A stretch of 64,000 nt of DNA from a virus (lineage: Duplodnaviria > Caudoviricetes), in the IMG/VR virus record IMGVR_UViG_3300014204_013734, positions 96,001-160,000 of that record. One strand, given 5' to 3'. The stretch's first letter is position 1. Every line of letters begins with the position of its first letter. This document shows, piece by piece, positions 3,001-64,000 of this stretch. The notes under the pieces were generated by a model, which was given only the letters and a program-made list of their open reading frames with translations, was not told where the DNA came from and did not search any database. Made by a program: the position numbers and the translations under genes.

Positions 3001-3167
3001 ATTCCCGCCGAGCCGACCGGCACGCCAACATCACCGATTTCTTCAAGAAACACGGCAAAGAAACGAAATGTGCCAGATCAAGGCTTCTGCTGAGCTGTTA
3101 TCCTGATGCCGGAAAGACGGCGTCAGTCCCAAATTCGGTTGAGGGTTGGTTGAAATTTGACGTGTGA
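1..3167 (+). CDS. Modular repeat-containing protein (probable virion/head-cargo polyprotein), likely 5'-truncated by the window edge
   Basis: Frame is open from base 3 through the ATG at 39. Contains four 36-aa ARYEEGxPADPTENM repeats and a duplicated GLYG domain. Modules are separated by KTAS/RIAS/RLAS/KIAS/KTAA/KKAG linkers. Confidence 0.8.
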   Translation, partial: PRKGYEASDFNYMAGMVAGAVIAPLHALQKMMDRERDAGKKAFLEGPDMKNADWQPGKKDEEGWEEGKRVPDTITEGEGSLIPNILERLAMLSDDCNGLLARYEEGVPADPTENMSPEDAKEWKEQNEEHRDEFKKAFDALTSKAQETNTLATLERLAANKKAKHRSLSEIADEITRDWPSVNYAAKPYLNAMKSLDQITETYGQDPAKSIVAYFLSNATSWKGEKAKAVKAELKALLKIRGASEKTASDNTVSIMKEFLDRDWPAVEKAVSELDWDEATNTLKRIQGVYHHSAGLDKNVIDMPDTKALGHIRMLLDAFKTKDEKKIKEDMESRGPVMVKEWKTNIGKYKWQAGFQGEEIKNLSEQIVSKAFSELGGPSGWDVRQVFFKEGPEAAQKAFDAALIRRHKTSSEEDGEDGIEARYEEGVPADPTENMTEEDAKEWRLQNLKNKDNFKGSCVSEETDGLLAKYEEGKPADPTENMTEEDAKKWKNNTEEHKNEFKKADSHNVIFVSVRAKKLEGLAPGTEIKFPWKSEEGDLVTCCPYAAVVQRSESSYLTRIQERQGFQAEMILTLQQPPNLKNPARWEKDLKAYLDSPGGTVEILKNPRKPTIWSNGIPITKTAATGPDKTGRNWMEFNEKLGHWWAWNGKPGPTFRVTEVPGPGIPLYQLQMLMDDGKLLKFRHQEKDLKRAFTFASAFWKTLNSEAGGLIDLTHHWSRIASNEVESRFEEGVPADPTENMTPEDKAKWEAMNEEHRDEFKTSSRNDTQKKTLSDTRTLPERKPQGQPSTFSTDSRLASAAPSGLYGHTKRIQADCEACIGKLSRAAERIAKNAWRKDEQVAPFLAAHAKRSGSLPAAILVDAMTGIGPKIASNTETVIASGTAPSGLSDSQERLWNSLWQLAVNDGNAFRANEPKKAVNDSYDAFRDQAVEDLIWELRDDFKKIRAPMVQALQNHWLKSKKAGSAKHGLYGFSLKTSTLGMSSCTAIHELAGHLAADLHSRRADRHANITDFFKKHGKETKCARSRLLLSCYPDAGKTASVPNSVEGWLKFDV
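303..2288 (+). repeat. Four dispersed 108-bp/36-aa repeats (303-410, 1263-1370, 1404-1511, 2181-2288)
   Basis: [AS][RK][YF]EEG[VK]PADPTENM[ST]xED..xW...N.....xFK is read four times in the translation. Confidence 0.95.
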
Positions 3168-44352: not shown

Positions 44353-46233
44353 ATGGGCAGCAACCTAGCTAACATCGCTCTCGGGGTGGCTCGGGCCTCC
44401 CGAAACAGGTCGGTGTTGCAGGACACCCCGGCCGATATCATTCAGTTCATTGAATCCCCTTGGGGCATCCACATGCCCTTATTTCCAGTCCAGCGTGTTA
44501 TTCTGAAAGCATATTATGGGTTGGAACTGGACGACAAGGACACGTTTGAAGTTTACTCCGATTGGCATTTGAACAAGATTCGGAATTTCACCGAAGCTGG
44601 GTACTTGCGTTACCTCCATGATGAAGGTCGATGCAACGTCCGGGAAATAGTTCCAGGAAAACCCAAGACGGAACTGGTGTTGAGCATAGGCAGGCGTGGC
44701 GGGAAAACCCTTTTGTCCTCATGTATATCATCTTATGAGTCATATAGATTGATTATGAAGGGAGATCCGAAAAGCTATTACGGGATTTCCCCGTCAACGA
44801 CCATTCAGATTATTGCCATTGCTACGGATAAAGATCAGGCGGGATTGTTATACACGGAAGTTTCCGGACATTTCCGTGGTTGTGACTTTTTCGGTCCCTA
44901 TACGGCTAACAACACCTTGTCCTACGCTAGATTCCAAACTCCGAGTGACATTGAAAAATATGGGCGGTATGCTGATAATCCATCAGCTATGGCGTCGGTG
45001 AAAGTGACGTTCCGGTCGTGTATCGCCAAGGGACTTCGTGGACCTGGTAATATCGTCGTCATCATGGACGAAGCGGCCCATTTTACGGATGGGGGTCAAT
45101 CTTCCGCTGAAGCCGTGTACACTGCCGTCACGCCGTCTACATCAACGTTTGCCCCCAAGGATCCGAACGACAAGCGCAAACCAATTGGGGATGTTGAAGG
45201 CAAGATTATTTCCATCAGTTCCCCATTGGGGAAGCAAGGTCATTTTTACAAACTGTTTCAGACAGGTATGAAGGGTGGAAAGGCGGGGGCCAGCATGCTT
45301 TGTATCCAGGCGCCTACCTGGGAAGCTAACCCGACTCTTCCTGCGTCTGAATACGAAAAGCATTATCACAAGGATCCGACGATATTCTTTACGGAATATG
45401 GCGGAGAATTTACAGACAGAACCCGAGGCTGGTTGGAACGGCCGGAAGATTTGATCGCCTGTGTTGACAAGACGCGTCGGCCAATGACCAATGGGATTCC
45501 TCGTCAGCCCCATTTCATTGGAATTGACCTTGGGCTCGTCAATGATGCCACGGCAGTTGCCATTGGGCATCATGATCTGATTGGGGGTCAGAAGAAAATC
45601 GTTCTTGATTTGGTAGATCAGATTAAGGCGGGGGAAGGGAAATTTTCAGATGTGACCCGGCTGGAATTTGATGATGTTGCCGACTGGATTCTCCAACTGT
45701 CGAAACGGTTTTACTTGGCGGAAGGAATGTTTGACCAATGGACCGGGATCCCGTTTGAACAAGCTTTGGAAAAACGGGGCTTGCGCCAACTGAAATCCGT
45801 GGTCATGACTAAGGCCTTGAACAGCGAAATATATCGAAATTTCAAGGATGTGATGTGGGACAAGTGGTTGGTTCTTTACGATTGGCCTATCCCTGCGGAT
45901 ACTTCGCAGGGGGCGCATTGTGCCTATCTTGAAGAATTGTTTGAACTTCAGGCGGAATATCAATCTAAGTACGTGACCGTTGTTCACGCTCCACAAATAG
46001 AAGGCAAGCATGACGATAGGTCAGATGCCTTGGTGCGTATGATTTGGATGGCCAGCAACGCCCTTGGAAACATGAAACATATGACAGGGACTAGGGGCGG
46101 ATTTGCAACTCTAGGATCGTATCAGGCGTTTGAATCTATGTGGAGGAAATCCAGAATCAAAGCATTGCGGGGCGGTTCAAGTCCTGAACGCCAAATTCCC
46201 AGACAAGGCAGACAATCCCTGCGTACGAGGTAA
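44353..46233 (+). CDS. terL: Terminase large subunit
   Basis: LFPVQ; Walker A GRRGGKT; Walker B VIMDEAAH; ISISSP; nuclease IGIDLG...FDQW...HDDRSDA. Confidence 0.93.
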   Translation: MGSNLANIALGVARASRNRSVLQDTPADIIQFIESPWGIHMPLFPVQRVILKAYYGLELDDKDTFEVYSDWHLNKIRNFTEAGYLRYLHDEGRCNVREIVPGKPKTELVLSIGRRGGKTLLSSCISSYESYRLIMKGDPKSYYGISPSTTIQIIAIATDKDQAGLLYTEVSGHFRGCDFFGPYTANNTLSYARFQTPSDIEKYGRYADNPSAMASVKVTFRSCIAKGLRGPGNIVVIMDEAAHFTDGGQSSAEAVYTAVTPSTSTFAPKDPNDKRKPIGDVEGKIISISSPLGKQGHFYKLFQTGMKGGKAGASMLCIQAPTWEANPTLPASEYEKHYHKDPTIFFTEYGGEFTDRTRGWLERPEDLIACVDKTRRPMTNGIPRQPHFIGIDLGLVNDATAVAIGHHDLIGGQKKIVLDLVDQIKAGEGKFSDVTRLEFDDVADWILQLSKRFYLAEGMFDQWTGIPFEQALEKRGLRQLKSVVMTKALNSEIYRNFKDVMWDKWLVLYDWPIPADTSQGAHCAYLEELFELQAEYQSKYVTVVHAPQIEGKHDDRSDALVRMIWMASNALGNMKHMTGTRGGFATLGSYQAFESMWRKSRIKALRGGSSPERQIPRQGRQSLRTR

Positions 46234-46791: not shown

Positions 46792-49700
46792 ATGAATCAG
46801 GATGAAAAAGTGGTCAAGAAGATACCCATCAGGAAGGGTATCGTTACGGGTCGACCCAACAAGGTTGTCACTTCAGCCATGCGGTCTAAAGTGGCATTTC
46901 CGACTTCCGGCGGTACTATCACGGGTTCCGGCGGGAATTTCTATTCTCCTGAACTGTCGACTGACTTCCTTGAACTCCCCCAAAGTATCAATGAACGTTG
47001 GAATTACTATCGCTTTTTCTATGACAACGAACCCTTCGTCGGGCAGGCTATAGATCTGCATACGGAACTTCCCCTTTCAAAAATCCGTCTGGTGCCGCCG
47101 GAAGCCAAGAATAGAGATTTGGCTCAGCAGGCGTTGACCTTTTGTGAAAAATGGTCCAAGAACATTCGGCTTCTTCACCGACTCATTGCAATCGTCCACG
47201 ATTATCACCTGATTGGGGAAGTGTACGTCTTTGCCGAAGACACTTCTCCTGATCTGCCACAGGATGTCCGGCAGGAACCCTTGCGGGAAATCACTTCCGA
47301 AGGGGAAGCCATAGAACGTTGGATAGATCGTCCTGACGCGGATGCACGGGCAATTGATTGGCTCAAGAGAAATTACAAGGGGTGGTCCGCTTTGAGGGTG
47401 CTTCCCCCTGAACAAATCCACATGACGTCATTCCCGTTCACTGACGAAAAAATTATTGAACTGGTTCCGGATTCTAAGACCAAGGACATTGTGGAAAAGG
47501 CTGACGCCGGGGATCTTCAGGCTGTCAGGGTCGTGGAATCCATGCCACAGGACATCATCCAGGCAATCAAGGAAGGTAAGAATATCCCCTTGAATACCGA
47601 TCCTGATGCCGGGTCTTTCGTTCATTATCTGGCTCGGAAGCGGAGTGATTACGACGAACACGGCAAGTCCATTCTTCAACGGTGCCTTCTGCCTGGAACA
47701 CCTATTTGGATCAAGCGGCATGGGACTATCCAACAGATTGCTGTGGAAGAGGTGAATGATTCCACGGATCTTTTGTTGACTCACCTGGGCCGGTTTATGC
47801 CTTGTAAGGCAGGAACCCGCCCGGTAGATGAAGAAATCACCGTCCTTGAAATCGAAGGTGTTGAAGAACCTTTGAAGCTGACTTCCGACCACGAAGTCCT
47901 TCGTGTCCTTGAAGACGGGTCTGAAGAGTGGGTTGCAGCAGGCAAACTGCAAATCGGGGATATTGTTCGGGAAAGTCATGTCCTTCTCGATGGAAATCCG
48001 GATGGAAATCCGGCAATTCCTTATCATTTCAAGAACATTGACATGGTCAGTTGGTGGTCGGGTCGTATCCTTGATTCAATCAAGCGCGGCAGACCCGGCA
48101 CAGATTTGTTGGAAACAGAACGGAAAGTTGTCGTTGAAGCTATTCATCCTGATGGGAATGGTATTGTCGTATCCTTCCGTCATGAAAATGACAATCGGAA
48201 CCGAGTGAAGATTAGTCCTGTGTTGGAAAAGATACTTTCTTGGGCGTTTAGCCTGGAAGTTCCCGTTGTCAAAACGCAGGCGGAAGTAGCTGTTCTTGCA
48301 GGGGTGTCGGAACGTGATGTTAGGATGTACGTCCCCCGTCTCCGTAAAGAAGGTCTGCTGAAGACGGAAGTCAGGTCCCTTGGCAGGGGGAAGGGTCAAT
48401 CCGTGACGTGGTTCCCTGCGGTAACTGGGACGCTTCCCCCTATTATTACAACCCTGTCTTCCCCTATCAGGAATATTGCCGTTGATGAAAATTTCTGTTG
48501 GTTGCTTGGGGCATGGTTTGGGGATGGTTTCGTTTGGACGGAACACGAAACTTTGTTGAACGTTGACTGTGTCGGATGGTCCCTTCACGACCAAGATGTT
48601 GAAGCTAAGGTCGTGGAATTGGTTGATAAGTATTTTGGTTCTGTGAATGTGAAGCGGGGTTGTCTCGTTGACAAGAACACGGATTCCGATGACCTTCGCA
48701 TTGAAGACCCCCTTTTGGCCCGTTGGTTTATGGAAGAATTTGGGTACACGGCACAAGGTAAGCAGATGCCCGAATGGCTTTTCCATCTTCCCGAAAGTTA
48801 CGTCCTGGCTTTTCTTCGTGGTCTGTTAGACACGGATGGTTGGATAGGGGTTGATACGGCATTTCAGATTGGGTTCGGCATGGACAATAAGGTTTTGATT
48901 GACCAGATGCACCTGTTGTGTAATCGGGTCGGGATCAAGACACATGTTGGGAAAAACCATAAGAAGGAACGTTCCTGGACAAGAACCTGGAACACCAAGA
49001 AGGGTGTTCGGGAAAAGACCTATGATTACGAAGCCAAGACTTATCCGACTTTGACTTGTTCTCGTTCCGAAGATGTTCGGCGATGGGCAGGGGAAGGAAG
49101 TATCAAGGGTTCCAGGGTTGAATGGGTAGACAGGGAACCAGACAACCGTAGGGGACCTAAGATGATCGGCGGATGGCTGGTCCACAGGATTGCTTCGGTT
49201 TTGAATACCCCCTACAAGGGTCCGGTGTGGTCGTTTGATGTTGAAGAGGATACTTCTCATTTTACTTCAATCATCACACATAATTGTTTGAGAACGCTGG
49301 TCTTCAGAGACAAGATTCGGCAGGCGCATACGTCCATTGCTTCTCGACACATGACGCCTTACCGGGTCATTTATGCCGAAAATATGAATGATGACCAGAC
49401 GGAAGCCTTGCGTGATCAAGTAGACTTGGCTTTACAAGACCCCGACTATTCCATCATCACGAACTTCGCGGTGACGTGGGAAGAAATGGGCGCCGATCAG
49501 CGGTTGCCCGACTGGTCTTGGGTGTGGGACATGACGGATCGTCAGCTTTATGCCGGTCTCGGCGTAACTGAAAGTCTGTTGTCCGGGGAAGGGGCCTATG
49601 GGGGTGACAGACTTCACCTAGAAGTTATCAACACCAGGTACATGTTACTGCGTGAAATCCTTCAAGATTTCGTTGAACATGATCTGTTCCGTCCTATGTG

Positions 49701-50070
49701 TGCAAGGATGGGGTTCGTTGAGGAAGACGATGAAGGGAATGTAGAACCTTTGGTTCCGCGTTTGTCCTTCACTCGTCTTGCTTTGCGTGATAATTCGGAC
49801 ACCTTTGACGCCTTGTTCAATCTCTACCAGAAGGGCAGCCTTGACATTGACATCATTCTGGATCTTCTCAACATAGATCCGGTAACAACCCGAGAAAAGC
49901 TGCAACGGGATGTGTTCACGTTGAATGATTCTTCGTTCAATGAAGTTTTACGGGGCATCTACCAGAAAGTCGGGGATCTTTTGGTAGAAGGTTCCGATGT
50001 TACGGAAAAGATTGCCGAAAACCTTGGACTGGTGTTCAAGAAAGTCAAGGAAGGCGGCGAACGTTTCTGA
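46792..50070 (+). CDS. Portal protein with intein (about 558 aa after splicing)
   Basis: Follows terL; YRFFYDNEPFVGQAIDLHTELPLSKI...DYHLIGEVY...GKSILQR/CLRTLVFRDK...AGLGVTESLLSGE pattern is typical of portals. Confidence 0.8.
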   Translation: MNQDEKVVKKIPIRKGIVTGRPNKVVTSAMRSKVAFPTSGGTITGSGGNFYSPELSTDFLELPQSINERWNYYRFFYDNEPFVGQAIDLHTELPLSKIRLVPPEAKNRDLAQQALTFCEKWSKNIRLLHRLIAIVHDYHLIGEVYVFAEDTSPDLPQDVRQEPLREITSEGEAIERWIDRPDADARAIDWLKRNYKGWSALRVLPPEQIHMTSFPFTDEKIIELVPDSKTKDIVEKADAGDLQAVRVVESMPQDIIQAIKEGKNIPLNTDPDAGSFVHYLARKRSDYDEHGKSILQRCLLPGTPIWIKRHGTIQQIAVEEVNDSTDLLLTHLGRFMPCKAGTRPVDEEITVLEIEGVEEPLKLTSDHEVLRVLEDGSEEWVAAGKLQIGDIVRESHVLLDGNPDGNPAIPYHFKNIDMVSWWSGRILDSIKRGRPGTDLLETERKVVVEAIHPDGNGIVVSFRHENDNRNRVKISPVLEKILSWAFSLEVPVVKTQAEVAVLAGVSERDVRMYVPRLRKEGLLKTEVRSLGRGKGQSVTWFPAVTGTLPPIITTLSSPIRNIAVDENFCWLLGAWFGDGFVWTEHETLLNVDCVGWSLHDQDVEAKVVELVDKYFGSVNVKRGCLVDKNTDSDDLRIEDPLLARWFMEEFGYTAQGKQMPEWLFHLPESYVLAFLRGLLDTDGWIGVDTAFQIGFGMDNKVLIDQMHLLCNRVGIKTHVGKNHKKERSWTRTWNTKKGVREKTYDYEAKTYPTLTCSRSEDVRRWAGEGSIKGSRVEWVDREPDNRRGPKMIGGWLVHRIASVLNTPYKGPVWSFDVEEDTSHFTSIITHNCLRTLVFRDKIRQAHTSIASRHMTPYRVIYAENMNDDQTEALRDQVDLALQDPDYSIITNFAVTWEEMGADQRLPDWSWVWDMTDRQLYAGLGVTESLLSGEGAYGGDRLHLEVINTRYMLLREILQDFVEHDLFRPMCARMGFVEEDDEGNVEPLVPRLSFTRLALRDNSDTFDALFNLYQKGSLDIDIILDLLNIDPVTTREKLQRDVFTLNDSSFNEVLRGIYQKVGDLLVEGSDVTEKIAENLGLVFKKVKEGGERF
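47683..49284 (+). mobile_element. Portal intein (534 aa, LAGLIDADG, extra HTH)
   Basis: Starts CLLPGT; TSDH; LGAWFGDG and LRGLLDTDG; VWSFDVEED; ends ITHN before Cys. Confidence 0.9.
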
Positions 50071-50142: not shown

Positions 50143-53100
50143 ATGCAGCAGACAGTTTCCAGCGCAAAAGACGGCAGAAAGACGGGGGACGGGTCCGGGG
50201 TCGGATTTTTCATTCCCCTTCCTCCTGATCTTGGGGCGCAGTTCCCTGACCTTGGGGATGAAGACCGCAGCAATCCGCATACGACATTTCTTTACGTTGG
50301 GGAAGTTCCTGAAGAACGAGAAGCCGAATTCCTGGAAGTGTCTGCCCGTGTCCTGGGGACGTTGGGCGGTCTTGTTCGGGGTTATCTTGATCACCTTGAC
50401 TATTTTACGCAGCCAGACAAGGACCGGAAGGTCGCTGTCATGGCGATTCGGTTTGACAAGGATCTTGCAGCACTTAGATGGAATCTACGCGATGCCCTTC
50501 TTGATGCCGGTTTTCAGGTAGCTGATGGATTCCCCCTTCTGTACAAACCGCATGCAACTATCCAATACATGGAAGGACTTGGTTCCGAATGGAAAGGTCA
50601 TGTCCCTTCCGGGTCATGGTCATTTGACAGGATGGAAGTTTGGGGTCTGCCGAAACTGCATTCCGTTTATTTTGGTGAATCCGTGGAAGGACGTGTAGCG
50701 TCCAGGTTCCTGGAATCCATGGAACACGGGGTTTCGGTTGCCTTGATGAAGTTCTTGTCGGATGTTGCCAAAAAAGCAGGCGTGTCAAAAAACACCTACG
50801 TAGTAGGCGGGGCCGTTCGTAATTTCATTTTGGGGGTGCCCGTCAAAGACGTGGATGTCGTGATAGATTCCATTGCTTCGGGCAAGGATTCCGCATGGTT
50901 CGCCAAAAAGGTCAAGGAAGCGATTCCCGTCCCAACCAGTTTCGTGACCAATCAGTACGGTGTTGCATTGCTGACGGTGAAGGGGGATTGGTTCGTTGAT
51001 GGGGCTAATCTGAATGGGGAAACCATAGAGATTGCCAACGCCCGGAAGGAATCCTATGGTGGGGAAGCGGGCCAAGGTTACAAACCCCATATGGTCGCTC
51101 CTGCGACCATAAAGGAAGATGTCATCAGGCGGGATTTCACTTTCAACACCCTCATGTGGCGTCTCCATGATCTATCTTCCGGTCCCGATGCGGCAGAAAT
51201 CCTGGATATAACCGAATGCGGATTGAAGGATCTGCAGGCGGGGGAAATGCGGTGCCCTTCCGATCCTGACAAAACTTTTTCGAATGATCCTTCCAGATTG
51301 ATACGGGCCATAAAATTTATTTTGAAATACGGATTCAAGGTTCCCCCGGAAGTGGAAGCTTCTATTCGCCGTAACGGTCTGAAGCTCAGAAACGTCCCTC
51401 CTGGTCACCTTAGCAACATGATCATTGAATTGTTCTACGAAGGTGGGTGGGGTCGGCGTGCTTTGGAAGAAATGGACAAGTTGGGACTCCTGGAAGTCAT
51501 CAAAGACATAGCTAGGACGGACAAACCTTTCAGGGAAGCCTTGTCCAATTGGGCAGACCGCAAGGCTGACATTTCTTTCCTGTTTGACCTGATTGACATC
51601 GGGATGCCGACCGGAAGGCGTTTGAACTTCCTGACACAACCGCAGAAGGACCGTCTCAGGGAAATAACCGTACAATGGCCTGCTGAGAAGTCCGACGAAT
51701 TTGTAAACCTGCTGGAACAGCCTGGGCGCATCAAGGGTCTTGCTTTCGGGGGATTGATCCAGGAACTTGGGCTTCAAGGACCAGGAATCAAGGCGTTGAC
51801 CGACACCGTTCGCCAACGGCTTCTTGACGATCCTGATTTGGTCAGAAATCCTGACAAGCTCAGGAGGTTGGTCGGGTTGGGGAAAACGGCCGGGATTGAC
51901 AAACCCTTGGACAAGGACTGGTTGATGGCCGTCCGACGGGGATGGTTGAAATTGATGAATCCTGCTATCCGTGATTACGGCGATGTGCTGAAAGCGTTTA
52001 ATGCTTTGGATGCCTTTGCCGAAAACTTGCAGGATCAGGTGCTTAATGTCAGGCGTGATCTTTTTACGAACGATGTCAGAACTGACAAGGTAATTGCCGG
52101 CATCAAGAGGCTTCGGGAAGCAATTTCGGATTCCAGATACCATGCGAAGTTTTGGTCCGAGTGGCTTGACGGGACATCCGTGGGTTTTCGGTTGGGGGAA
52201 GATCGGACCGCAGATGCCTTGAAGATGTTGGAATTGTACCGCACGAATTTTTCTGATGCTTCTGGAACTTCAGTGAAGGGGCGTAAAAGTCCCAGCAACC
52301 CTTGGGCGAATAGCCGACAGGTTCCGTTGACTTATATCCTGGACGCGGTTTTGAAGGGGCTTTACGAAATTGCCAAAAAGAATCTGGAAGTAGGGGAGTC
52401 CGGGGACATACCGGAATATGAATCGTTCTTTCGGGAATTTTCCCTGGGAGGCATGAAGATTCTTATCAGTGATCCGAAAACACATGGTAAGGCGATAGGT
52501 GCCTATGTCCGTCAGATTGGTAAGGCAAAGCATCTTTTGGAAGCGGCTGGATTCGCCAAGGATTGGCGTGGGTTGATGATGGTCCAGTCGTCTGATTGGC
52601 ATGTTTTGACTGACACGGAAAGGGAAATATATCGGCGCAGAGGTTATGACATTCAGGAAACTGCGGGGCAGTATAGAAGTGGATCCGATTCCATTGTCCT
52701 GACTTCCCCCCCGGATTGGTCTTTGGTATTGACAATCGTGCATGAGATCGGACACCGACATTGGTCCAAGTATTTGGATGTTTCCGACAGAAAACGTTTC
52801 GCGGACTGGATTGCCGAAGGTTTGGCTCCGGTCAGCGACTACGGGAAAACCAATCCGTCAGAAGCTTTTGCAGAGGTATTCGCTCATTATGTGAATCGAA
52901 AGAACATGACCAGAGACCAGTTGGAATCCTTCAAAGCAGTGGTCAATAAGACGGCGTCCGAAAAAAAGGTGTTGAAAAACAAAAAAGGCTGCTTGATTTT
53001 GGCTCGTGTAGGGGGTTTGAGTCCGGTTAGGCAGCGCAACGAAGCGGCGCCTGCCCGTAAAGGGTTGTGGGCCTTTCTATGGCCTTGGTTTGACACTTGG

Positions 53101-56100
53101 TTGCTTAGTGGCACGAATGCTAGGGGGTGGCTTGAGAATCAAGATCAAAAAGGGGGCACGCGGTTGGAGGATTTCAAGCGCGAAGGCTACCGGAAATTCA
53201 AACATTGCGGTTATGTGTGGACGCATTTTGATATTCCAGGAAAAGAAGTTTTGACTAAAGGTCATTGGAATTTGGTTCATTCCTCGGATCTGGCGCGGGA
53301 AATTCCTCGGATATACAAGAGCGAACTTAAAGCTTTACGGAAACAGTATTGGGAAGATTCTAAAACCCCTACTACCCCGGCCGGAGTTGAAGAACAGAAA
53401 CAGCAATCCCTTGAATTTGCGGAATATTGGATACGTCGTCAGGACTGGTCCGAAATGTGCGAGGTGTTTGTTGAACCCCATATGGCGGACAAGACGGCGG
53501 CATTCACTGAAAGCGACTTGGAAACTGCCACCAAGGAGTTTGAAGAAGTTGTACAGCGTCTTACTGACAAGAGGGCCCTTTTTGAAAAAGCCTTTGCAAA
53601 CGAAAACGTTGATGACCCAAGGTATTTGCGACACAGGAAAATTGGGCTCAAGGCATGGATGGAAAAACCTTGGGCCTGGTTGGTTTTTAACGGGAATAAG
53701 TTGTCAAGAATCGTGTTGGAACGGAAATCAGTTCCTTCTGGGCAGGGGAAGGCTTTGGAAATGGCGGCTCGGACTTTCATGTCAGCCAAGCGTTTTCCTG
53801 CAGATTTTGAAGGGTGGATGGCCAAGAATTCAAAGTATGTGGCTTTCCTTCTGAATGCCGCGAAAACTTGGGAAGACAAGAAAGAAGGGGGTTCAGAACT
53901 ATTCAAGATCGGTCCATTCACTGTCCACAATACCATCGGGGCGGCGGATGCCGATTTGGAAGGTGTCCGAAAGATGTTTGAAGCAGCAACATCTGCTGTC
54001 GGACGATTGGGCGGGGATTATTCCGATTTCAAGAAGGTTCTTTACGGAGATGTGCTTGTCGTTGCCCGGTTGAGTCAGCCTAAAGTGATGGCTTGGTATA
54101 CCCCCAATGAGGATGCTGTTTATGTCCGGCAGATGAAGACCGCCGGGATTGACGATGTCCACAATCTTATTCACGAATTGGCTCATCGGTTTTGGAGAAA
54201 GTTTGCGGACGCTAAATTGAAGGCGCGTTGGGTACAACGTGATGACATTGTGCGGTGGGGGGATGATTGGTTCAAGGGTTTGAAGTTGCCTGGGATAGGG
54301 GACACCCTTCCAATTATCTTGAACAAGCAAAAGTATCCTAAGATTGTTGATTTGGACGCCAAGGTTTACAAATTGGCGGTGCCAACGATTTTGGATCCTT
54401 ACAATACTGTTTCCATCCCTCGGACCAAGGTTTTGGAATGGGTTCGGGAAGATGCCAAGAAGGAACAGTTTCCTACCCCCTATGCCGCCAGAGGAGGGGT
54501 AGAAGAACACTTCTGCGAAGCCCTTGCCCTCAAGGCACTCGGTAAGCTCCAGAAGAATCACGAAGAAGCTCTTGATAGAGTGTTCAGCGGGGAACCTGAT
54601 CCGAAGGAGATTGCGTTTGTCAAGGATGTTCAGGAGGCCCTGCGGAAACAGAATCCGTCTGTTGTAGCGTTCCGTCATCTGAAAAAGGCTGGGTTTTTCA
54701 ATGTTGGGGATAAAATTTGGTTCGGCAAATATAAAAACAAAGCCGGGATTATAAAGGGCTTTTCACGGGACCCAAAAGGCAATCCGACCGTCATCATTTC
54801 CCCTGTACCCCAAGGACGGAAGCAAGACAAGGAATTTGGCTTGTACAAAATCTGGCATGCCGATCCTGCCAAAAAGGTTGCCGTCCGTTGGATTTTTGGT
54901 TCCCCTGTCAGGGAACCTTGGCAAATGACGTTTGATGAGTTTCGGCGTGAAGTCAAAACCCAAAGAATTGAATGGAAAGCTGTTCAGACGTTTGAAGATT
55001 TTTTGAAAACGAAGAAGGTTGATCCAAAAGAGCTGCCTTCCCTTGAGGAAGAAGCTGACGTTTTGGGGGGTTTGCTTTTCAGTCGTCCAAATATGACGCA
55101 ACATGAAAAAGGTCGTTTGAAAGGAATTGTCCACAAAAAAATGCTAAAGGATAAGCTTGTTAAGGAATGGAAAGACACCGTGGACAAGGTTGAAACCCAC
55201 ACTGATCTTGATTTATCTAGAAGTTCCGATGCTGCCTATTTGAAGGTCCAGCACAAACGGGCTATCAGGAAGGCATTATCTGAAGGGAATCCAGTTCCTT
55301 CCGAAGTTCTTGCAGAATATCCCGACATCAAAACCGGGATGCGTGTCGCCCAGGATGATAGATGGGATCGTCGGAAGCCAGAAGCGTTCCGAACCCTGAT
55401 TCCCGAAGGTATTTCTAAGAGAATTTACCAAGAACAGATCGGGGAAGTCGGGGGTTTCAAGGTGTGGTTGGTAGACGGCATCGTAATTCGTGACAAAATT
55501 GATATTGATTTCACGGCAGGAGGGAACCCGTCAAGGTACGGTTACATTCCTGCGGATGAAATTTGGTTGGAAAAGACTGGGGATTCCCCATTCAGGAATT
55601 TTGATTTGGCCGCTACCTTGATTCACGAACTTGTTGAATCTTGGGTGATGTCAAACTTGGGGTGGGATTACGACAGGGCTCACGACACGGCTTCCAAATT
55701 TGAAAAGGGGTTCAGGAAGCATCCCCGACTGGTGCCGGAGAACCGGATTCTTTTGATTGCGGAATTCTTGTACCGGAAATGGTTGGGGAGTTCCATGTCG
55801 GGTCGGGTTGCCGCCCGTTACAAGGACAAGAAGACCGTTAAAGATAAGAACGGCGACGACATGGTCGTTTACGAATACAGTGACCGACAGATCGCCAACA
55901 GGAATCGGGAAAAGGCGGAACGGGTTGAAAAGCTCCGCGGCAAGTTGGACAAGCTGGTTTCTCAGGTCAAGAAAGACCTGAAGTCTGACGATGAAAAAAC
56001 CCGCATGACCGCCTTGGCGGTTGGGTTAATTAATGACGTGTACGAGCGCGTTGGAAATCCAGGATCCGCCAAGGACGGTCATTTTGGGGTCACTGGTTGG

Positions 56101-59100
56101 CTTGTCAAGCATGTGTCCTTTTCCGATGGGAAGGCCCTTCTTAAATATGTTGGCAAGTCGGGGGTTGAACAGGACAAGGAAACATCGGACGCTGGTTTGG
56201 TGAAAGCGTTGAAGGATGCCGTCAAAGGCAAGAAGAAGGATGATCCGATCTTTGAATTTGATGGAGGTCGGATCAGTTCAGAAACGGTGAACGAATATCT
56301 GAAACCTTTTGACATCACGGCGAAGGATATCCGTGGACTTCACGCCAACAAAGAAACGCAAAAGGCGTTGAAGGCTATCCGGGCTAAGGGCGGAAAGCTT
56401 CCAGAGGATAAGAAAGAACGGGAAAAGAAGCTCAAGGAGGAATTCAAGAAAGCTGTGGAAGAAGCGGCGGAAATCGTTGGACATGAACCTACCACACTTA
56501 AAAATCTGTATTTGGTTCCAAATCTGTACGAGGCGTTTATTGAAGACGGGACGGTCAAGGAAAACCTAGCGAAACAGAAAACAGCGTCCGTTGCTGCGGT
56601 AGATTTGGAAGAACAATTGAAGCTGTTGTCTCCTTCAGACCGTCACCGGTACGATGAACGGTTGAAGGAGGATCAGGAATTTAGGACTAACCAGGCTGTT
56701 ATCTTTTTGGATCGTCGTGTTCCGAAAGATCAGGTTGTCCGTCTTGAAAAGGAACGTTATCAGAAAATTTACAGGTTGTTGAAGGAATCATATAAGAAAG
56801 CACTACGAGATGGAAAAGATGTTTGGGTGCGAGGTGTTCCACAACTTCTTCCCTTGTTTTACAAATATGCCGTTGAAGCTTTGTCCGCTGAATTTCCAGG
56901 ACTTTCTTTTTCCAAACCTGTTGGATTTCTGATGAAAGATCACCAGAAGCCCCTTCGTTTGTGGGATGAAGCTGAGTATATCCATGACTACGTGGAAAAG
57001 AACCTGGGGAAAATTCATCGTGCTACCAAGACGCACGGGGAAAGGGAAGACGAGGAAGTCGCCGAATTGGTTAAGCCCTTGCCTAAGAAAAACCCCCCCA
57101 GGAATGATCTCCGGAAGGAACGCATGGAAGAGAACGACGGAGATGTAGGAAACCAGGGGGCCGACGAAGATAAAGACATGTCCTTGAATTACAAGCGGGT
57201 TGCCAACCGTTGGATTGAAGGAACCCAGAAAAAGCTATCTCCTGATCAGGAAACGCTTTTGCGTTCTTTGTGGTACAACGGGGATGATGCTGCTTTGGCG
57301 ACGTTCTTGGATTGGCCACGTTCCAAAGTCAAAAGAATTGTAGACCAGTTGCAGAAACTTGGTCTTGTGATTGTAGATTCCGACGGGATCATACAAGAAA
57401 ACACAAAGACAAATAGGATTGCCAACCGTTGGTTTCATTCCAAAAAAGACCTCATCAACGTTCGGAGAAAGGAAGATGGCAAGGTCGTTCAAGTCACCGA
57501 AGAGACCTTGAAGGAATCCCCTGATGAATATGAAACCTTGGAAGAAGGGGAACCCGAACCCGAACCCAAACCCGAACCCAAACCTGAACCTGAAAAGAAA
57601 GTTTGGGAATCAGATATGGGTTTGGTCAAGGATGATCAAGGCAAGGTGACTGGAGTTGATAAAGGCGGTAATGCCTTCAAGGAAACAGCCAAGGAATACG
57701 GGAAGGACACTGTTGAACTGGTTCTTTTCCTGCGTGCCTTTGCGCAGGGGGCCAAGATCAAAATCCCCCCTGCCCTTGCGAAAACGAAAGCCTGGAAGGA
57801 AATCTCCGATTATCCGGTTGAAACCAATCCGGCCCTTGTCAAGGGACTTTTGGAAGCCAAAGATTCCCCCTACAAGGAAGTTTTGGATGCGTTTGACGCA
57901 GCCACATCAAAGGGGAAACCTTCAATCATTCCCGAAAAGAAAAAAGAAGTTGAAGCCCCGACGGTCCAGGAAGGTGAATCCAAACCTGTTCCCAAACCGG
58001 AACCCGTTCCGGCCGTTGAAGAACCCGATACATCTGAAAAGGACTTGGATGCCGTTGTTGGTATGCTGGAAGTTGATCCTGACATGCAGGATGCTTCAGC
58101 AAAAATCACCAAGCGTTTATCCGACCCTAAAACCAGAGAAGAAGCGGTACGGGCATACCGGGAAACCTTTGACGAAGTCATGAATGAATTGAAGAACCAA
58201 GGGGGGGAAGGATTTGATGTGTCGGAATCCATGGCTACCGACCTTGGGGATGCTTTAAAGAATCCTGCCGGAGGGCGTGACGGAAAAGATTTGGGTCGCG
58301 ATTTAGCCCTTCATTCCATCGCCAAGCGTTTGGCGGATCCTGCTAATTTGGACGGGGTTGGTCTTTCGGAAGAGCCTTTGGATGAAATGACCCTTATTGA
58401 TCGGGGTGATCGTGCCCTGGAATTTTATGTCAAGTTTCCCGCTAATTTCCGTCAGGAAGTTGCTCGCCAAATGGTGGATAGGATCAGGGAAGCTAAGGAA
58501 AAAGGCGGTCCGCAAATACAGGAACTTGAACGCATTACTGCGGGTTTGCAAGCTGCTGCAATCGTTCATGATGATTTCAAGGACAAGAGGAACAAATGGC
58601 CCCTTTCTATTTCCCGTCCCGCCCCTGTTTTTAATGGGATTGTGAAATCTCTTTATGAAAAAGGGGATACTCGGGTTGTTGCGTCTTTCGGTATCGGGGC
58701 TCAAGGATTAGCTACGCCGGAAGGTCGGGAAAAATTGCGGCAGGCATTGGATTCCCTTGATGAAGATGAATTGTTTGAAGCGTTGGGCGGGGAGAAGGGC
58801 GAATGGGGTTTGATGATCCGAAACCTTAAGAAAGGGGGTTTGAGGGAAAAGGACAAGGCATGGTATTTGAATTTCATGAAGGAAATGACTGTTGGTGAAG
58901 TTACGACAGGGAATACGGTAGTGATGCAGGCGGCTACGAACGCCCAGGAAGTGAAGGCAAAGGCGGATAAAGAAAGAGAACGTAACCGGGAAGTGAAGCC
59001 GACTTCAGCCCAGATGGAACCTTCCTGGTCGGACTTAATTGATCCTAAATCCGAAAACACCATCGGGGAAGCGGCGGACGCTGTTCACAAAGATGCCCAG

Positions 59101-60511: not shown

Positions 60512-61090
60512 ATGACCCGCAAGAACGCGACATTGTCAGTTAACTACCAACAACGGGCGAAGCTATTTGCCGTAAACGATATTGTTTACCCGTTTTGGGG
60601 TTCCGCCGAAAAGACGGGACGTGTCGTGGCGGTTTACCCGGCAATTGGGATGGTTGATGTCGAATGGCCACACGGAAATGACCGTGTACCCGTTGAGGAC
60701 CTTCAGCAACTGAATCCCCACAGTCTGTTCCAACCTCCGTCCATCCCTGCCGGGGAAGATAGTATCCCCGGTGGGGCTGGGCAGGTTTCCGTATCCCCAG
60801 GACCAGTTAACAAAAATTCAGCTCTCCGTGTGGCGGCCGCTTTCATTAAGAAAGCCCTTTATTGGGCCGACAAAGACCGGCAGTACAAGGCCACGCAAGG
60901 GGAACTTGATGACAAGTGTTACCATTGCCCGAAGTGCGGGGAAGAACTGCGGAAGGCAATCTACAAACGTCGTGATGGCGCCAGTGTCCATCTTCTCGGT
61001 TGCGGAACATGCTTGTTCCTGATCAAAAAAGAAGACATCATTGGCGATCCTGAATATGCGGGTCCGAACATCGAAATAGAAGGTGTTTGA
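60512..61090 (+). CDS. Hypothetical head-module protein (SH3-like + zinc ribbon)
   Basis: GRVVAVYPAIGMVDVEWP; RVAAAF..KKA linker; CPKCG...CGTC. Confidence 0.75.
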   Translation: MTRKNATLSVNYQQRAKLFAVNDIVYPFWGSAEKTGRVVAVYPAIGMVDVEWPHGNDRVPVEDLQQLNPHSLFQPPSIPAGEDSIPGGAGQVSVSPGPVNKNSALRVAAAFIKKALYWADKDRQYKATQGELDDKCYHCPKCGEELRKAIYKRRDGASVHLLGCGTCLFLIKKEDIIGDPEYAGPNIEIEGV

Positions 61091-61092
61091 CC

Positions 61093-64000
61093 ATGGCATT
61101 TTTGCGTTACAGTAACGCCCGGGTTGTTTCCCCCCACGTGACTCATGTGCAATGGGGGAAAATTAGGACGGCTGGCCTTGTTACTAAGGTTGGTGGCCAG
61201 TTGGACGAAAATCTTGTCGATCGGGCCAGTGAATTGTTCGACAAACAATTCAACCCCAACGACTTTCTTCTGACCCACGCCACTATCATTGCCAGCGTTG
61301 ACACGTACAAACCGGCCGGGGATATGGGGAAGACAGGTTCCTTCTTGATGGATGGATTCCGGGTCAACCGCAAATATGCGGATTATAGAATTACCCAAGA
61401 GACTCAAAAATACATCAACAGCAATTGCCTTGTTTCTGGGACGCCCATTGTGATGGCAGATGGAACAGCAAAATCAATTGAAGATGTTGTTGTAGGGGAT
61501 GATGTTATCACCCATATGGGACGGATCAGAAAAGTCACAGAAACTTTTTGTCACGAAGTTCATGGAAACTTGTATGAAATCAAAGTATATGGTTCTAACG
61601 AACGTCTGCATGTGACTAAGGACCATCCTTTTTTTGTTTTTCGTCCAAATAAACAATGTGCTGAGTGTGGAAGCCCCTTAAAAAGATCTTTGCAATGTAT
61701 TTCGCAACTGCTTGGGAAGCATTACTGTTCCAAGGAATGCTATTACAAGAAAAGGGTCACAAACAAAGAACTTCTTAAAAAGAAGCATGGGGTTTTCGTT
61801 CCCGTACATGATTTGCAGGTAGGGGATTTTGCAGCAGTTCCTGTAGTTTCAGAAGAAATTCCAGTTAATTTGACATTAGGGCAGGCTCGTTTGATTGGCC
61901 TTTTTCTTGCGGAGGGTTATTACGAATTAGATAGCCGGCACGATAATGAAAAAGTTGGGGCTATGTGGGCGTTTCATGAAAAAGAAACAGAAACATTAGC
62001 CCATACTGTTTGTTCTTTGATGAAATCAGAATTTGATGTGGATTGTGTCATTCGTCATTGCACTGATACTAAAGGTATTATGGTAACGACAAAAGTCAAC
62101 CGCCAAGCTGCGGCTTTCTTTTCCCGATGGGTTCTTGGAGAAGATTCTACTAGTAAATATCTTTGCGCGGATTTGTTGAGGGCTCAGAAACCCATTCAGA
62201 TGGAAATAATGCGTGGCTGGTTTGATGGGGATGGTTCGGCTTTTAGTACCGGAACTGAAGAAATTCCCATAAGGGATTTTCGGATGACCGGATGCACATC
62301 ATCTCGGAAAATGGTTTCCCAACTGCAAATAATTCTGCATCGTCTTGGTATTTCACCTCGGTTAGCCTATGTTCTTAGTGAAGGTCGCCAACGAACGGTT
62401 ATTGATGGTCTTGTTAAGGTGATACCTGATCCAACAAAAATTCAATACAGTTGGGTTTTGTCTTGTGGCGCTGGATGGATATCTGAATTGGTAGAAACAA
62501 CCCGATTTGAAGAATCTTATAATGAAGTCATGTCTATTTTAGGGGGGGTTCAAGAAGTTCCAGATCTTAGGTTTCTGAATGGTTTTTGTATTAGGATGAT
62601 AACTTCAATAGAACCATATCCTTATCAAGGATTTGTTTATAACATTGAAACAGAAGAAGATCATTCTTACATTGCAGGTGGAATTGCCGTACATAATAGC
62701 GATAGTTGGTCCCGTGAAGTGCTTTTGAAGGCGTATCCAACGTTCATTGGCGGGCACAATTTCTGTTTTGCACCGGGTACTAGGGTTCTCTTGGAAAATG
62801 GCATCTATAAAGCCATTGAAGAAATACGTGTTGGCGACAAAGTTGTTACCCACAAAGGTGTGTTGCAGGAAGTAACCCACAAATTTGAACGCCAATTCCT
62901 GGGGAATCTTCAGGTTATTTGTGTGGATGGGTTTGAACATCCCTTGCGTGTTACTGGAAACCATCCTTTTTTGGTGATGGAAAACCAAACTGGAAATACC
63001 TGGATTCCAGCAGATAAACTGCAAGTTGGAACCCTCTTGGCAGGGACCAGTTCGGAAATAGGTGCTGTCAATTATCGTGTCCTATCCAATGTTGAAGTTT
63101 CTTACGAAGGTCTTGTGTACAATCTTGAAGTTTGTGATGATAATTCCTACATCGTGGAACCTGGTGTTGCAGTTCATAATTGCGAGCACGTCCAGGTTGA
63201 ATCTCTGAGCAAGGGTCGCATCATTGATGCAGTTGCCCGTGACATCGGGGATTCGGTCTACGTTGACATCCTCATTGCCACTGACCGCAGACACAAGGAT
63301 CTCATTGAATCCATTGAAAATGGCAAGACGAATACACTGAGTATGGGATGTTCAGTGGACATGACTACATGTACTAAATGTGGCCACGTGGCCGCTGACG
63401 AGACCACTCTTTGTAACCATATAAAATACGAAAAAGGCAATACCTTTTTTGACGAGCAAGGACGGTCACATCGTATCTGCGAAATTTGCGGCCACCAGTC
63501 TATTGATCCGCACGGAGGGGTTCAGTTCATTGAAGCTTCGTGGGTTGCCCAACCGGCATTCACTGGAGCTGTGATGAGGAACATCATTCAGCCGACCGAA
63601 GATACCGTTCGTTTGGCGCAGCACATTCTCAATACCCCTCCGCCGCAATGGACCGAAGATTCCCGTCTGAAAGCCGCTAGGCATGAGGTTGTTGGGTCTA
63701 CAGGGACGGACGGCAACGGCAACGGCAACGGAGAAACGGTTGTAGTAGGTTCCTCAAAATTCCGTACGGCAGACATGTCTTCCGGCGGACGGCATTTCAC
63801 TGTTACGGCTGCCGAAATGGATCCTTTCATGGCAGGTTGGAACGAAGAGGATTCTTCAGGTACGGAACCGGAAAAACCACCTGTCCAGCCAACCCCAGCG
63901 GATCCTTTGACGCAGGTTGAAGACGATTTGGAAAAGCACCTTGTAGACAAGGTCGTCAAACGTGTCAGGGATCGTCTAAAAGACCAGGCTGTTGAAGAAA
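61093..64000 (+). CDS. Prohead (capsid maturation) serine protease with two inteins; runs off the window
   Basis: Open frame from ATG 61093 to the end. Spliced extein reads YINSN-SDSWSREVLLKAYPTFIGGHNF-CEH...KGRIIDA...LSMGC...CTKCG...FIEASWVAQPAF, an HK97/assemblin-type pattern. Confidence 0.85.
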   Translation, partial: MAFLRYSNARVVSPHVTHVQWGKIRTAGLVTKVGGQLDENLVDRASELFDKQFNPNDFLLTHATIIASVDTYKPAGDMGKTGSFLMDGFRVNRKYADYRITQETQKYINSNCLVSGTPIVMADGTAKSIEDVVVGDDVITHMGRIRKVTETFCHEVHGNLYEIKVYGSNERLHVTKDHPFFVFRPNKQCAECGSPLKRSLQCISQLLGKHYCSKECYYKKRVTNKELLKKKHGVFVPVHDLQVGDFAAVPVVSEEIPVNLTLGQARLIGLFLAEGYYELDSRHDNEKVGAMWAFHEKETETLAHTVCSLMKSEFDVDCVIRHCTDTKGIMVTTKVNRQAAAFFSRWVLGEDSTSKYLCADLLRAQKPIQMEIMRGWFDGDGSAFSTGTEEIPIRDFRMTGCTSSRKMVSQLQIILHRLGISPRLAYVLSEGRQRTVIDGLVKVIPDPTKIQYSWVLSCGAGWISELVETTRFEESYNEVMSILGGVQEVPDLRFLNGFCIRMITSIEPYPYQGFVYNIETEEDHSYIAGGIAVHNSDSWSREVLLKAYPTFIGGHNFCFAPGTRVLLENGIYKAIEEIRVGDKVVTHKGVLQEVTHKFERQFLGNLQVICVDGFEHPLRVTGNHPFLVMENQTGNTWIPADKLQVGTLLAGTSSEIGAVNYRVLSNVEVSYEGLVYNLEVCDDNSYIVEPGVAVHNCEHVQVESLSKGRIIDAVARDIGDSVYVDILIATDRRHKDLIESIENGKTNTLSMGCSVDMTTCTKCGHVAADETTLCNHIKYEKGNTFFDEQGRSHRICEICGHQSIDPHGGVQFIEASWVAQPAFTGAVMRNIIQPTEDTVRLAQHILNTPPPQWTEDSRLKAARHEVVGSTGTDGNGNGNGETVVVGSSKFRTADMSSGGRHFTVTAAEMDPFMAGWNEEDSSGTEPEKPPVQPTPADPLTQVEDDLEKHLVDKVVKRVRDRLKDQAVEE
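61426..62697 (+). mobile_element. Protease intein 1 (424 aa, LAGLIDADG, zinc-finger insert)
   Basis: Starts CLVSGT; TKDHPF; CAECG..YCSKEC; IGLFLAEG and MRGWFDGDG; ends IAVHN before Ser. Confidence 0.9.
62764..63180 (+). mobile_element. Protease intein 2 (139-aa mini-intein, no endonuclease)
   Basis: Starts CFAPGT; TGNHPF; VYNLEV; ends VAVHN before Cys. Confidence 0.92.

Follow-up and report, generated by a model that had tools for sequence, protein, structure and literature searches.

Phage polyvalent proteins are huge multi-enzyme chains, encoded in the portal-terminase head module, in which HExxH metallopeptidases and 2H phosphoesterases recur (Iyer et al. 2017, PMC5512222). CCA-adding enzymes are not mentioned in that description, whereas the protein analysed here, P0001, carries a class II tRNA nucleotidyltransferase and a topoisomerase IB, and its modules are set apart by short K/R-x-A separators. 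The joining of a class II nucleotidyltransferase to an enzyme acting on 2',3'-cyclic phosphates has its precedent in the HD-type CCA enzymes (E. coli Cca and M. tuberculosis Rv3907c; PMC10673834); there, however, the HD domain both opens the ring and removes the phosphate, whereas a 2H domain only opens it and a separate HAD phosphatase would be needed. The eukaryotic ANKZF1-ELAC1-TRNT1 recycling pathway likewise handles tRNAs ending with a cyclic phosphate at the discriminator (N73), ELAC1 acting first to remove the phosphate and TRNT1 then adding CCA (PMC10275265), but its healer is unrelated to 2H enzymes, and in the phage the cutting would fall to a ribozyme or to a nuclease of a defence system.

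Theta ribozymes are HDV-like ribozymes located 3' of CCA-less phage tRNAs, and CCA enzymes (tRNA adenylyltransferases) are 250-fold enriched in the phages that carry them (Kienbeck et al. 2024, PMC10879173). The tRNA end expected from these ribozymes is blocked, and the paper describing them mentions neither the cyclic phosphate nor an enzyme that would remove it. The phage studied here shares the placement of the ribozymes and the CCA-type enzyme, but its ribozyme copies keep the P4 stem and it is a non-gut jumbo phage. There is precedent for each part of the arrangement (PMC5512222, PMC7824862, PMC10879173); since ribozymes, 2H, HAD and CCA-type enzyme are found here in one genome, the path could be rebuilt from a single source with native substrates.

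A multi-enzyme protein in the head-gene locus

P0001 is encoded in a 64,000-nt window (the whole stretch of DNA that was analysed) of a 381-kb phage record that is 72% complete. The original prediction placed a 2H phosphoesterase fused to a CCA-adding domain at positions 50143-51880; the frame opening there reads on well past that end, so that the two domains make up the first 580 of 3,098 residues and are accompanied by zincin-like domains and a topoisomerase IB (Table 1). The protein sequence is identical in JGI/IMG, Logan and ENA, the longest contig being 444 kb. With several unrelated enzymes and an HExxH metallopeptidase in one chain, and in a portal-terminase context, P0001 has the features of phage polyvalent proteins. 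Besides the two zincin-like domains listed, a third one is degenerate, and the remainder of the chain includes regions without assigned identity. Of all members of the cassette, the topoisomerase IB is the most constant, being found in most related cassettes and sometimes on its own; in P0001 it is flanked on both sides by junction motifs (see below). An anthrax lethal factor-like toxin call (Pfam ATLF) was rejected, the match being a below-cut-off one to an HExxH zincin of the sort typical of polyvalent proteins.

Table 1. Coordinates of the features discussed; positions are those of the window unless preceded by C1, which denotes genome coordinates.
Feature	Position	Strand	Remarks
Terminase large subunit	44353..46233	+	weak PF03354 match; position conserved
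Portal protein with LAGLIDADG intein	46792..50070	+	directly upstream of P0001; intein-free orthologue matches PHROG portal families
Polyvalent protein P0001	50143..59439	+	3,098 aa; 2H and nucleotidyltransferase are its first 580 aa
2H phosphoesterase domain	50188..50682	+	aa 16-180; H46 at 50278, H137 at 50551
Junction motif RVASRF	50692..50709	+	between 2H and nucleotidyltransferase
Class II tRNA-nucleotidyltransferase domain	50728..51882	+	aa 196-580; CCA-like by motifs and model
Nucleotidyltransferase motifs	50848/50854; 51043; 51127; 51283	+	DxD; flexible loop; RRD; template NDPSR
Junction motif KTAG	51883..51894	+	closes nucleotidyltransferase module
Zincin-like metallopeptidase domain 1	51910..52947	+	HExxH at 52741; weak below-cut-off Pfam ATLF and Peptidase_Mx matches
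Zincin-like domain 2	53500..54642	+	HExxH at 54172; homologues recurrent in related cassettes
Topoisomerase IB catalytic domain	55810..56577	+	PF01028, E 1e-27; PDB 6z01, 2h7f
Head maturation protease with inteins	61087..63999	+	runs past window end; intein-free orthologue matches phrog_18299, E 1e-12
HDV-like ribozymes and CCA-less tRNA genes	C1:49285-58192 and 79141-86394		upstream of window (L017, L018)
RtcB	C1:69052-71538		also placed at C1:69061; insertion, probably an intein
HAD_SAK_1 (Swiss-army-knife) phosphatase	C1:87636-88295 (L159:1237-1896)		stand-alone; intact DxDxT
Rnl2-type RNA ligase	C1:377646-378794		also placed at C1:377682

The genes of the locus follow one another in the order terminase, portal, P0001 and, two genes on, head maturation protease, and P0001 carries the only 2H domain of its kind and the only CCA-type domain of the record. 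LAGLIDADG inteins interrupt both the portal and the head protease, and inteins also lie inside the CCA domain of many relatives (P0106; L052, L068, L070, L095).

The modules are delimited by a short K/R-V/T/I-A motif, which is located at module boundaries, among them the boundary that parts the 2H from the CCA domain. It was counted 41 times in 1,917 junction residues (21 per 1,000 aa) versus 0 times in 22,062 residues inside 2H and CCA domains, and genome-wide, one of its forms shows a 20-fold enrichment (14 vs 0.7). This motif may be a protease site or a packaging tag, and the polyprotein is probably cut at it; the position of the locus, together with the junction motifs, suggests that the modules are possibly carried in the phage head and would act early. 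A second large protein, encoded by a 1,647-aa ORF (window positions 1-3167, with its start 1.8 kb before the window), contains the KTA motif three times and resembles OAS1_C over a short stretch (E 3e-7); neither a nucleotidyltransferase motif nor a PDB match was found for it.

The 2H and nucleotidyltransferase domains

Profile matches to the 2H domain are weak (Pfam, E 2e-4; TIGR02258, E 1e-5 and 25 bits versus a cut-off of 65.7). Both predicted His-x-Thr motifs (HTT at H46 and HAT at H137) are present and invariant in 42 homologues, and the model of the domain (pLDDT 93.8) displays a clear 2H fold. Its closest structural match is drCPDase (Z 15.0, rmsd 3.8, 161 aligned residues), followed by YjcG (Z 14.2), LigT (13.2), ThpR (12.3) and human Usb1 (12.3), whereas Acb1 (T4 gp57B; PDB 7t27) reaches Z 8.2 over 125 aligned residues. 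Profile searches gave E 3e-6 to LigT-type proteins versus 0.8 to Acb1, and no match to the Acb1 family (PF23474) was detected in the genome, nor on P0001 at E 0.1. The domain thus resembles ThpR/LigT and drCPDase (PMC4201822; PDB 4qak, 5h7f) in its fold, its two HxT motifs and its best structural and profile matches, but it is viral, modular and 18-20% identical to them. It also departs from ThpR in its extended motifs: ThpR has HxTxxF and HxTxxR, with an essential Arg130 (PMC4201822), whereas P0001 has HxTxxY twice (the second HxTxxY is found in 143 of 147 homologues), as does the phage 2H enzyme Acb1 of T4. Acb1 needs a lid, which may lie at either terminus (10.1101/2025.08.21.671373); the C-terminus of our model is a LigT-like strand pair, and no lid is evident in it, though lids are poorly predicted. 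In the Atlas, its nearest clusters belong to viral 2H families and bear a mixture of LigT-like and Acb1 labels, with PF23474 in 11-28% of their members. The P0001 domain belongs to a separate viral 2H subfamily, the substrate of which is not readable from sequence. For the 2H, the family numbers 260 clusters with E values of 1e-30 or better, and no close member of the 2H/nucleotidyltransferase family was found in annotated phage genomes. The only annotated phage record with this type of 2H is KX853510 (Virus Rctr197k; L319), where CDS 173 encodes a 2,000-aa hypothetical protein that ends with such a domain (33%).

The second domain is matched by Pfam PolyA_pol at E 2e-16. Its model, built from a 40-homologue alignment (pLDDT 92.6), has the head-neck-body-tail fold and is best matched by 3h38 (Z 23.6, rmsd 5.0, 314 aligned residues), which we take to be the CCA enzyme of T. 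maritima; the entries that we take to be A-adding enzyme, poly(A) polymerase and CC-adding enzyme score Z 21.0, 18.1 and 16.9, respectively. Most of the motifs initially read from the DNA proved to be in place: the DxD of motif A (D236/D238, invariant in 120 of 121 family members), the R-x-E-x-Y of the flexible loop, which is of full length with an RxE start (R301, E303 and Y305 are conserved in nearly all of the 121), and the DPxRxxR near position 51286. The RRD stretch, which is motif B, is there as well; however, the EDxxRRDFTxN segment that contains it had been mislabelled as the template. The template is motif D, for which EDxxR and DDxxR are the sole forms given for CCA- and A-adding enzymes (PMC11784652), and it reads NDPSR in P0001. 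Asn occupies the first template position in 2 of the 121 family members and D or E in the remaining 119 (P0002, for example, has DDxxR), while the template D and R are invariant throughout (121/121). It is unlikely that N381 stems from a sequencing error, the protein being identical in three sources, although these may share one sample.

Other departures are family-wide, with RN standing for RD, mostly RRE for RRD, and a motif E that is not recognisable in the family alignment. As anticipated, no HD domain was found, either in P0001 (Pfam) or elsewhere in the record. NCBIfam cut-offs for CCA enzymes are not reached by P0001, and we know of no core motifs by which CCA- and A-adding enzymes can be separated. 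A poly(A) polymerase of the PcnB type was rejected, as the upstream [LIV][LIV]G[RK][RK]F signature is absent and TIGR01942 scores 96 bits versus a cut-off of 306, and a CC-adding enzyme was rejected given the presence of the flexible loop, which CC-adding enzymes have deleted. The family is viral: besides two probable phage contigs in bins, cellular matches stand at ~30% (cyanobacterial, A-adding-type), and annotated phages match at 26-37% only. Judged by its motifs and modelled fold, the P0001 domain is a class II, CCA-like tRNA nucleotidyltransferase; it would add C, C and probably A, although the Asn of NDPSR may weaken A addition. Tandem pairs of CCA-type domains are seen in P0011 and in the protein of L066:9881-12724. 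The second such domain of P0011 has lost its loop, so that a CC-adding and an A-adding enzyme could be paired in one chain.

Across relatives, the stretch from portal to protease is a variable cassette in which 2H, CCA, HAD, zincins and topoisomerase are fused, adjacent or absent. Among 34 cassettes sampled through their portal genes (with crude de-duplication, and a portal alignment seeded from CCA/2H loci), both 2H and CCA were present in 6, 2H only in 7, CCA only in 5 and neither in 16, so that co-occurrence above chance was not found at this level (P 0.26). A CCA-type enzyme is encoded somewhere in 12 of the 13 records with a core 2H, an association in which genome size, kinship and the choice of queries are confounding factors. 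Direct neighbours of 2H, 46 of which could be named among the 150 best representatives, are led by CCA (24), HAD (9) and topoisomerase (8), in a count made with a profile biased towards CCA-linked copies. Fusions of 2H and CCA exist in both domain orders, a quick tree showing ~7 changes of label, and triple CCA-HAD-2H fusions also occur. As the cassette joins unrelated enzymes, fusion by itself means little; the link between 2H and CCA is preferential, not obligate.

CCA-less tRNA genes, HDV-like ribozymes and a HAD phosphatase

The genome encodes 36 tRNA genes, 24 with an encoded CCA and 12 without. An HDV-like ribozyme lies directly 3' of all 12 CCA-less genes versus none of the 24 CCA-encoding ones (P 8e-10). 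The ribozyme copies are 68-90 nt long and possess, along with the P4 stem, the HDV double pseudoknot and the invariant catalytic C. In their alignment 97% of cells are paired and two-sided changes are seen in 15 of 22 pairs, including the one-pair P1.1; the Rfam HDV family matches at E 0.002. The ribozyme starts right after the discriminator in 11 cases and after one further C in tRNA-His, and the predicted cut site falls at most 5 nt from the tRNA end, which is the placement of theta-type ribozymes. One of the CCA-less genes followed by a ribozyme, tRNA-Asp(GUC) (C1:49489-49562), was missed by ARAGORN; another, tRNA-Arg(UCU), spans C1:55838-55987 together with its ribozyme. HDV-type cleavage generates a 2',3'-cyclic phosphate end, and the ribozymes would accordingly be predicted to cut the 12 tRNA precursors and leave this group at the tRNA end. 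Ends of this kind have been repaired with T4 kinase (10.64898/2026.08.25.746378).

The ribozymes appear not to extend to related phages. Our ribozyme model (R1), derived from this one genome, had no match in sets of 5, 39 and 25 related viral records, which are mostly fragments and overlap little between sets, and a loose descriptor applied to ~430 tRNA genes of nine relatives returned scattered chance-level matches only; the matches from three DNA pattern scans were rejected by R1 and ARAGORN. As the related records searched lack a ribozyme match, we reject the idea that 2H and ribozyme are obligately linked throughout the family, and the ribozyme-enzyme link is specific to the lineage of the P0001 phage. 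Relatives without ribozymes nevertheless have CCA-less tRNAs (43 of 65, 34 of 45, 25 of 30 and 9 of 9), and tRNA sets, mostly including CCA-less genes, are kept by each of the ten tRNA-rich relatives that were examined. In the closest complete relative, CCA is encoded on at least 62 of the 67 tRNAs, yet this phage retains 2H and CCA. Given these relatives without ribozymes, the role of the family is probably wider, namely tRNA maturation where needed and repair otherwise; the ribozymes may have spread in the P0001 lineage because end healing was already available.

A HAD phosphatase gene adjoins the second tRNA cluster and has genes for a chaperonin (PF00118) and for a C39 peptidase as its neighbours. 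The phosphatase bears a junction motif at its C-terminus and is the orthologue of the HAD fused to CCA in the CCA-HAD-2H proteins of relatives. Because the ends produced by ThpR-type 2H enzymes carry a 2'-phosphate (PMC4201822), the pathway is likely to require such a phosphatase.

A putative tRNA 3'-end pathway and its alternatives

The reading that we favour, with confidence somewhat above even, is that 2H and nucleotidyltransferase together accomplish tRNA 3'-end healing and tail addition. The substrate would be a tRNA ending at or next to the discriminator with a 2',3'-cyclic phosphate, made here by the HDV-like ribozyme on 12 precursors and, in the general case, by host metal-independent nucleases that clip the CCA tail, such as some Cas13 (LbaCas13a and RsCas13; 10.64898/2025.12.03.690598; 10.64898/2026.08.25.746378). 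The 2H domain, if its LigT/ThpR-like fold is a guide, would open the cyclic phosphate to a monophosphate, the HAD phosphatase would take the latter off, and the nucleotidyltransferase would rebuild the tail. All modules of P0001 would be synthesized as a single polyprotein of the head locus, probably cleaved at the junction motifs and possibly packaged in the head. Cas13 tail clipping yields the same tRNA end, and the pair may also restore tRNAs that host defences have clipped; we found no paper testing such a phage countermeasure.

Of the two functions put forward in the original prediction, tRNA 3'-end repair is the more strongly backed, with the fold, CCA and HAD as the nearest fusion partners, and a cyclic-phosphate substrate native to this genome all speaking for it; what it lacked was the need for a phosphatase after 2H, the phage's own ribozyme-cut tRNAs as a possible substrate, and the larger, possibly cleaved polyprotein. 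Some features of the sequence run counter to this function: the 2H domain is without the essential Arg of ThpR and has the Acb1-like HxTxxY twice, while an NDxxR template is unreported in CCA- and A-adding enzymes (PMC11784652). Host enzymes could, moreover, do the whole tRNA-finishing job. A bolder version of the pathway, which we consider doubtful, is a complete line independent of the host, with the ribozyme replacing the processing nuclease, 2H and HAD replacing the HD or ELAC1 healer, and the phage's own tail-adder completing the end; the enzymes would be released by cleavage of tagged polyproteins, would travel in the head and would also reverse CCA clipping of the Cas13 type.

Alternatively, 2H and nucleotidyltransferase might be neighbours merely because the cassette strings enzymes together. 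The nucleotidyltransferase would then add or repair tails on its own account and the 2H would be a separate counter-defence nuclease that, like Acb1 and other viral 2H enzymes, destroys the cyclic or 2'-5' oligonucleotides with which CBASS and type III CRISPR signal, which is the role proposed for polyvalent 2H domains by Iyer et al. (2017, PMC5512222) and, in its Acb1-like form, the other function originally suggested. The shared HxTxxY motifs, the PF23474-bearing neighbouring clusters, the junction motif that separates the two domains and the 7 of 13 2H cassettes without CCA are all in line with this view, but the Acb1-like function comes out the weaker of the two: along with the missing PF23474 match and the lower Z score, the comparison with T4 Acb1 aligned just 20 columns (probability 31.5), the LigT-like C-terminus shows no evident lid of the kind that Acb1 needs, poorly predicted as lids are, and the usual neighbours are RNA-end enzymes. 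HAD lies beside 2H in 5 of the 7 CCA-free cassettes, and CCA or HAD is found in 11 of the 13 cassettes that have 2H versus 7 of the 21 that lack it (post-hoc P 0.005). We regard unconnected cargo as unlikely, though deserving of some weight.

A general healing of RNA ends, compatible with the tRNA-end pathway, is less probable still. Here, 2H and HAD would ready 3' ends for the phage RNA ligases, as in anticodon-loop repair, the nucleotidyltransferase being another member of the repair kit; this task has been assigned to jumbo-phage 2H enzymes (Iyer 2021, PMC7824862). The genome does encode an Rnl2-type ligase and RtcB, with which the 2H could take part in further kinds of repair, and relatives fuse the nucleotidyltransferase to a ligase or a P-loop kinase. 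However, RtcB needs no end healing, no AAA_33 polynucleotide kinase was found in the 72%-complete record, and CCA adjoins 2H directly more often than any other domain in the count. Least probable, and indeed very improbable in our judgement, is a pair that edits ends rather than restores them, with a nucleotidyltransferase that adds C or CC only, adds A only, or tails other RNAs (perhaps disabling host tRNAs) and a 2H that is maybe an Usb1-like trimmer. The unusual motifs of the nucleotidyltransferase, its nearest cellular matches of A-adding type and the Z score of human Usb1 could be taken in this sense; on the other side stand the intact flexible loop, unlike that of CC-adding enzymes, the invariant template D and R, a best fold match to a DDxxR-type CCA enzyme, and the tRNA sets, mostly with CCA-less genes, kept by the ten tRNA-rich relatives.

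Two further observations concern the RNA genes of these phages. The first tRNA cluster contains a weak match (L017:2779-2880; 38 bits) to YrlA, a Y RNA-like RNA of a type that accompanies RNA repair systems, and a related 402-kb phage encodes a tRNA with a CUA anticodon, reminiscent of an amber suppressor (L158, G028:157500-159500).
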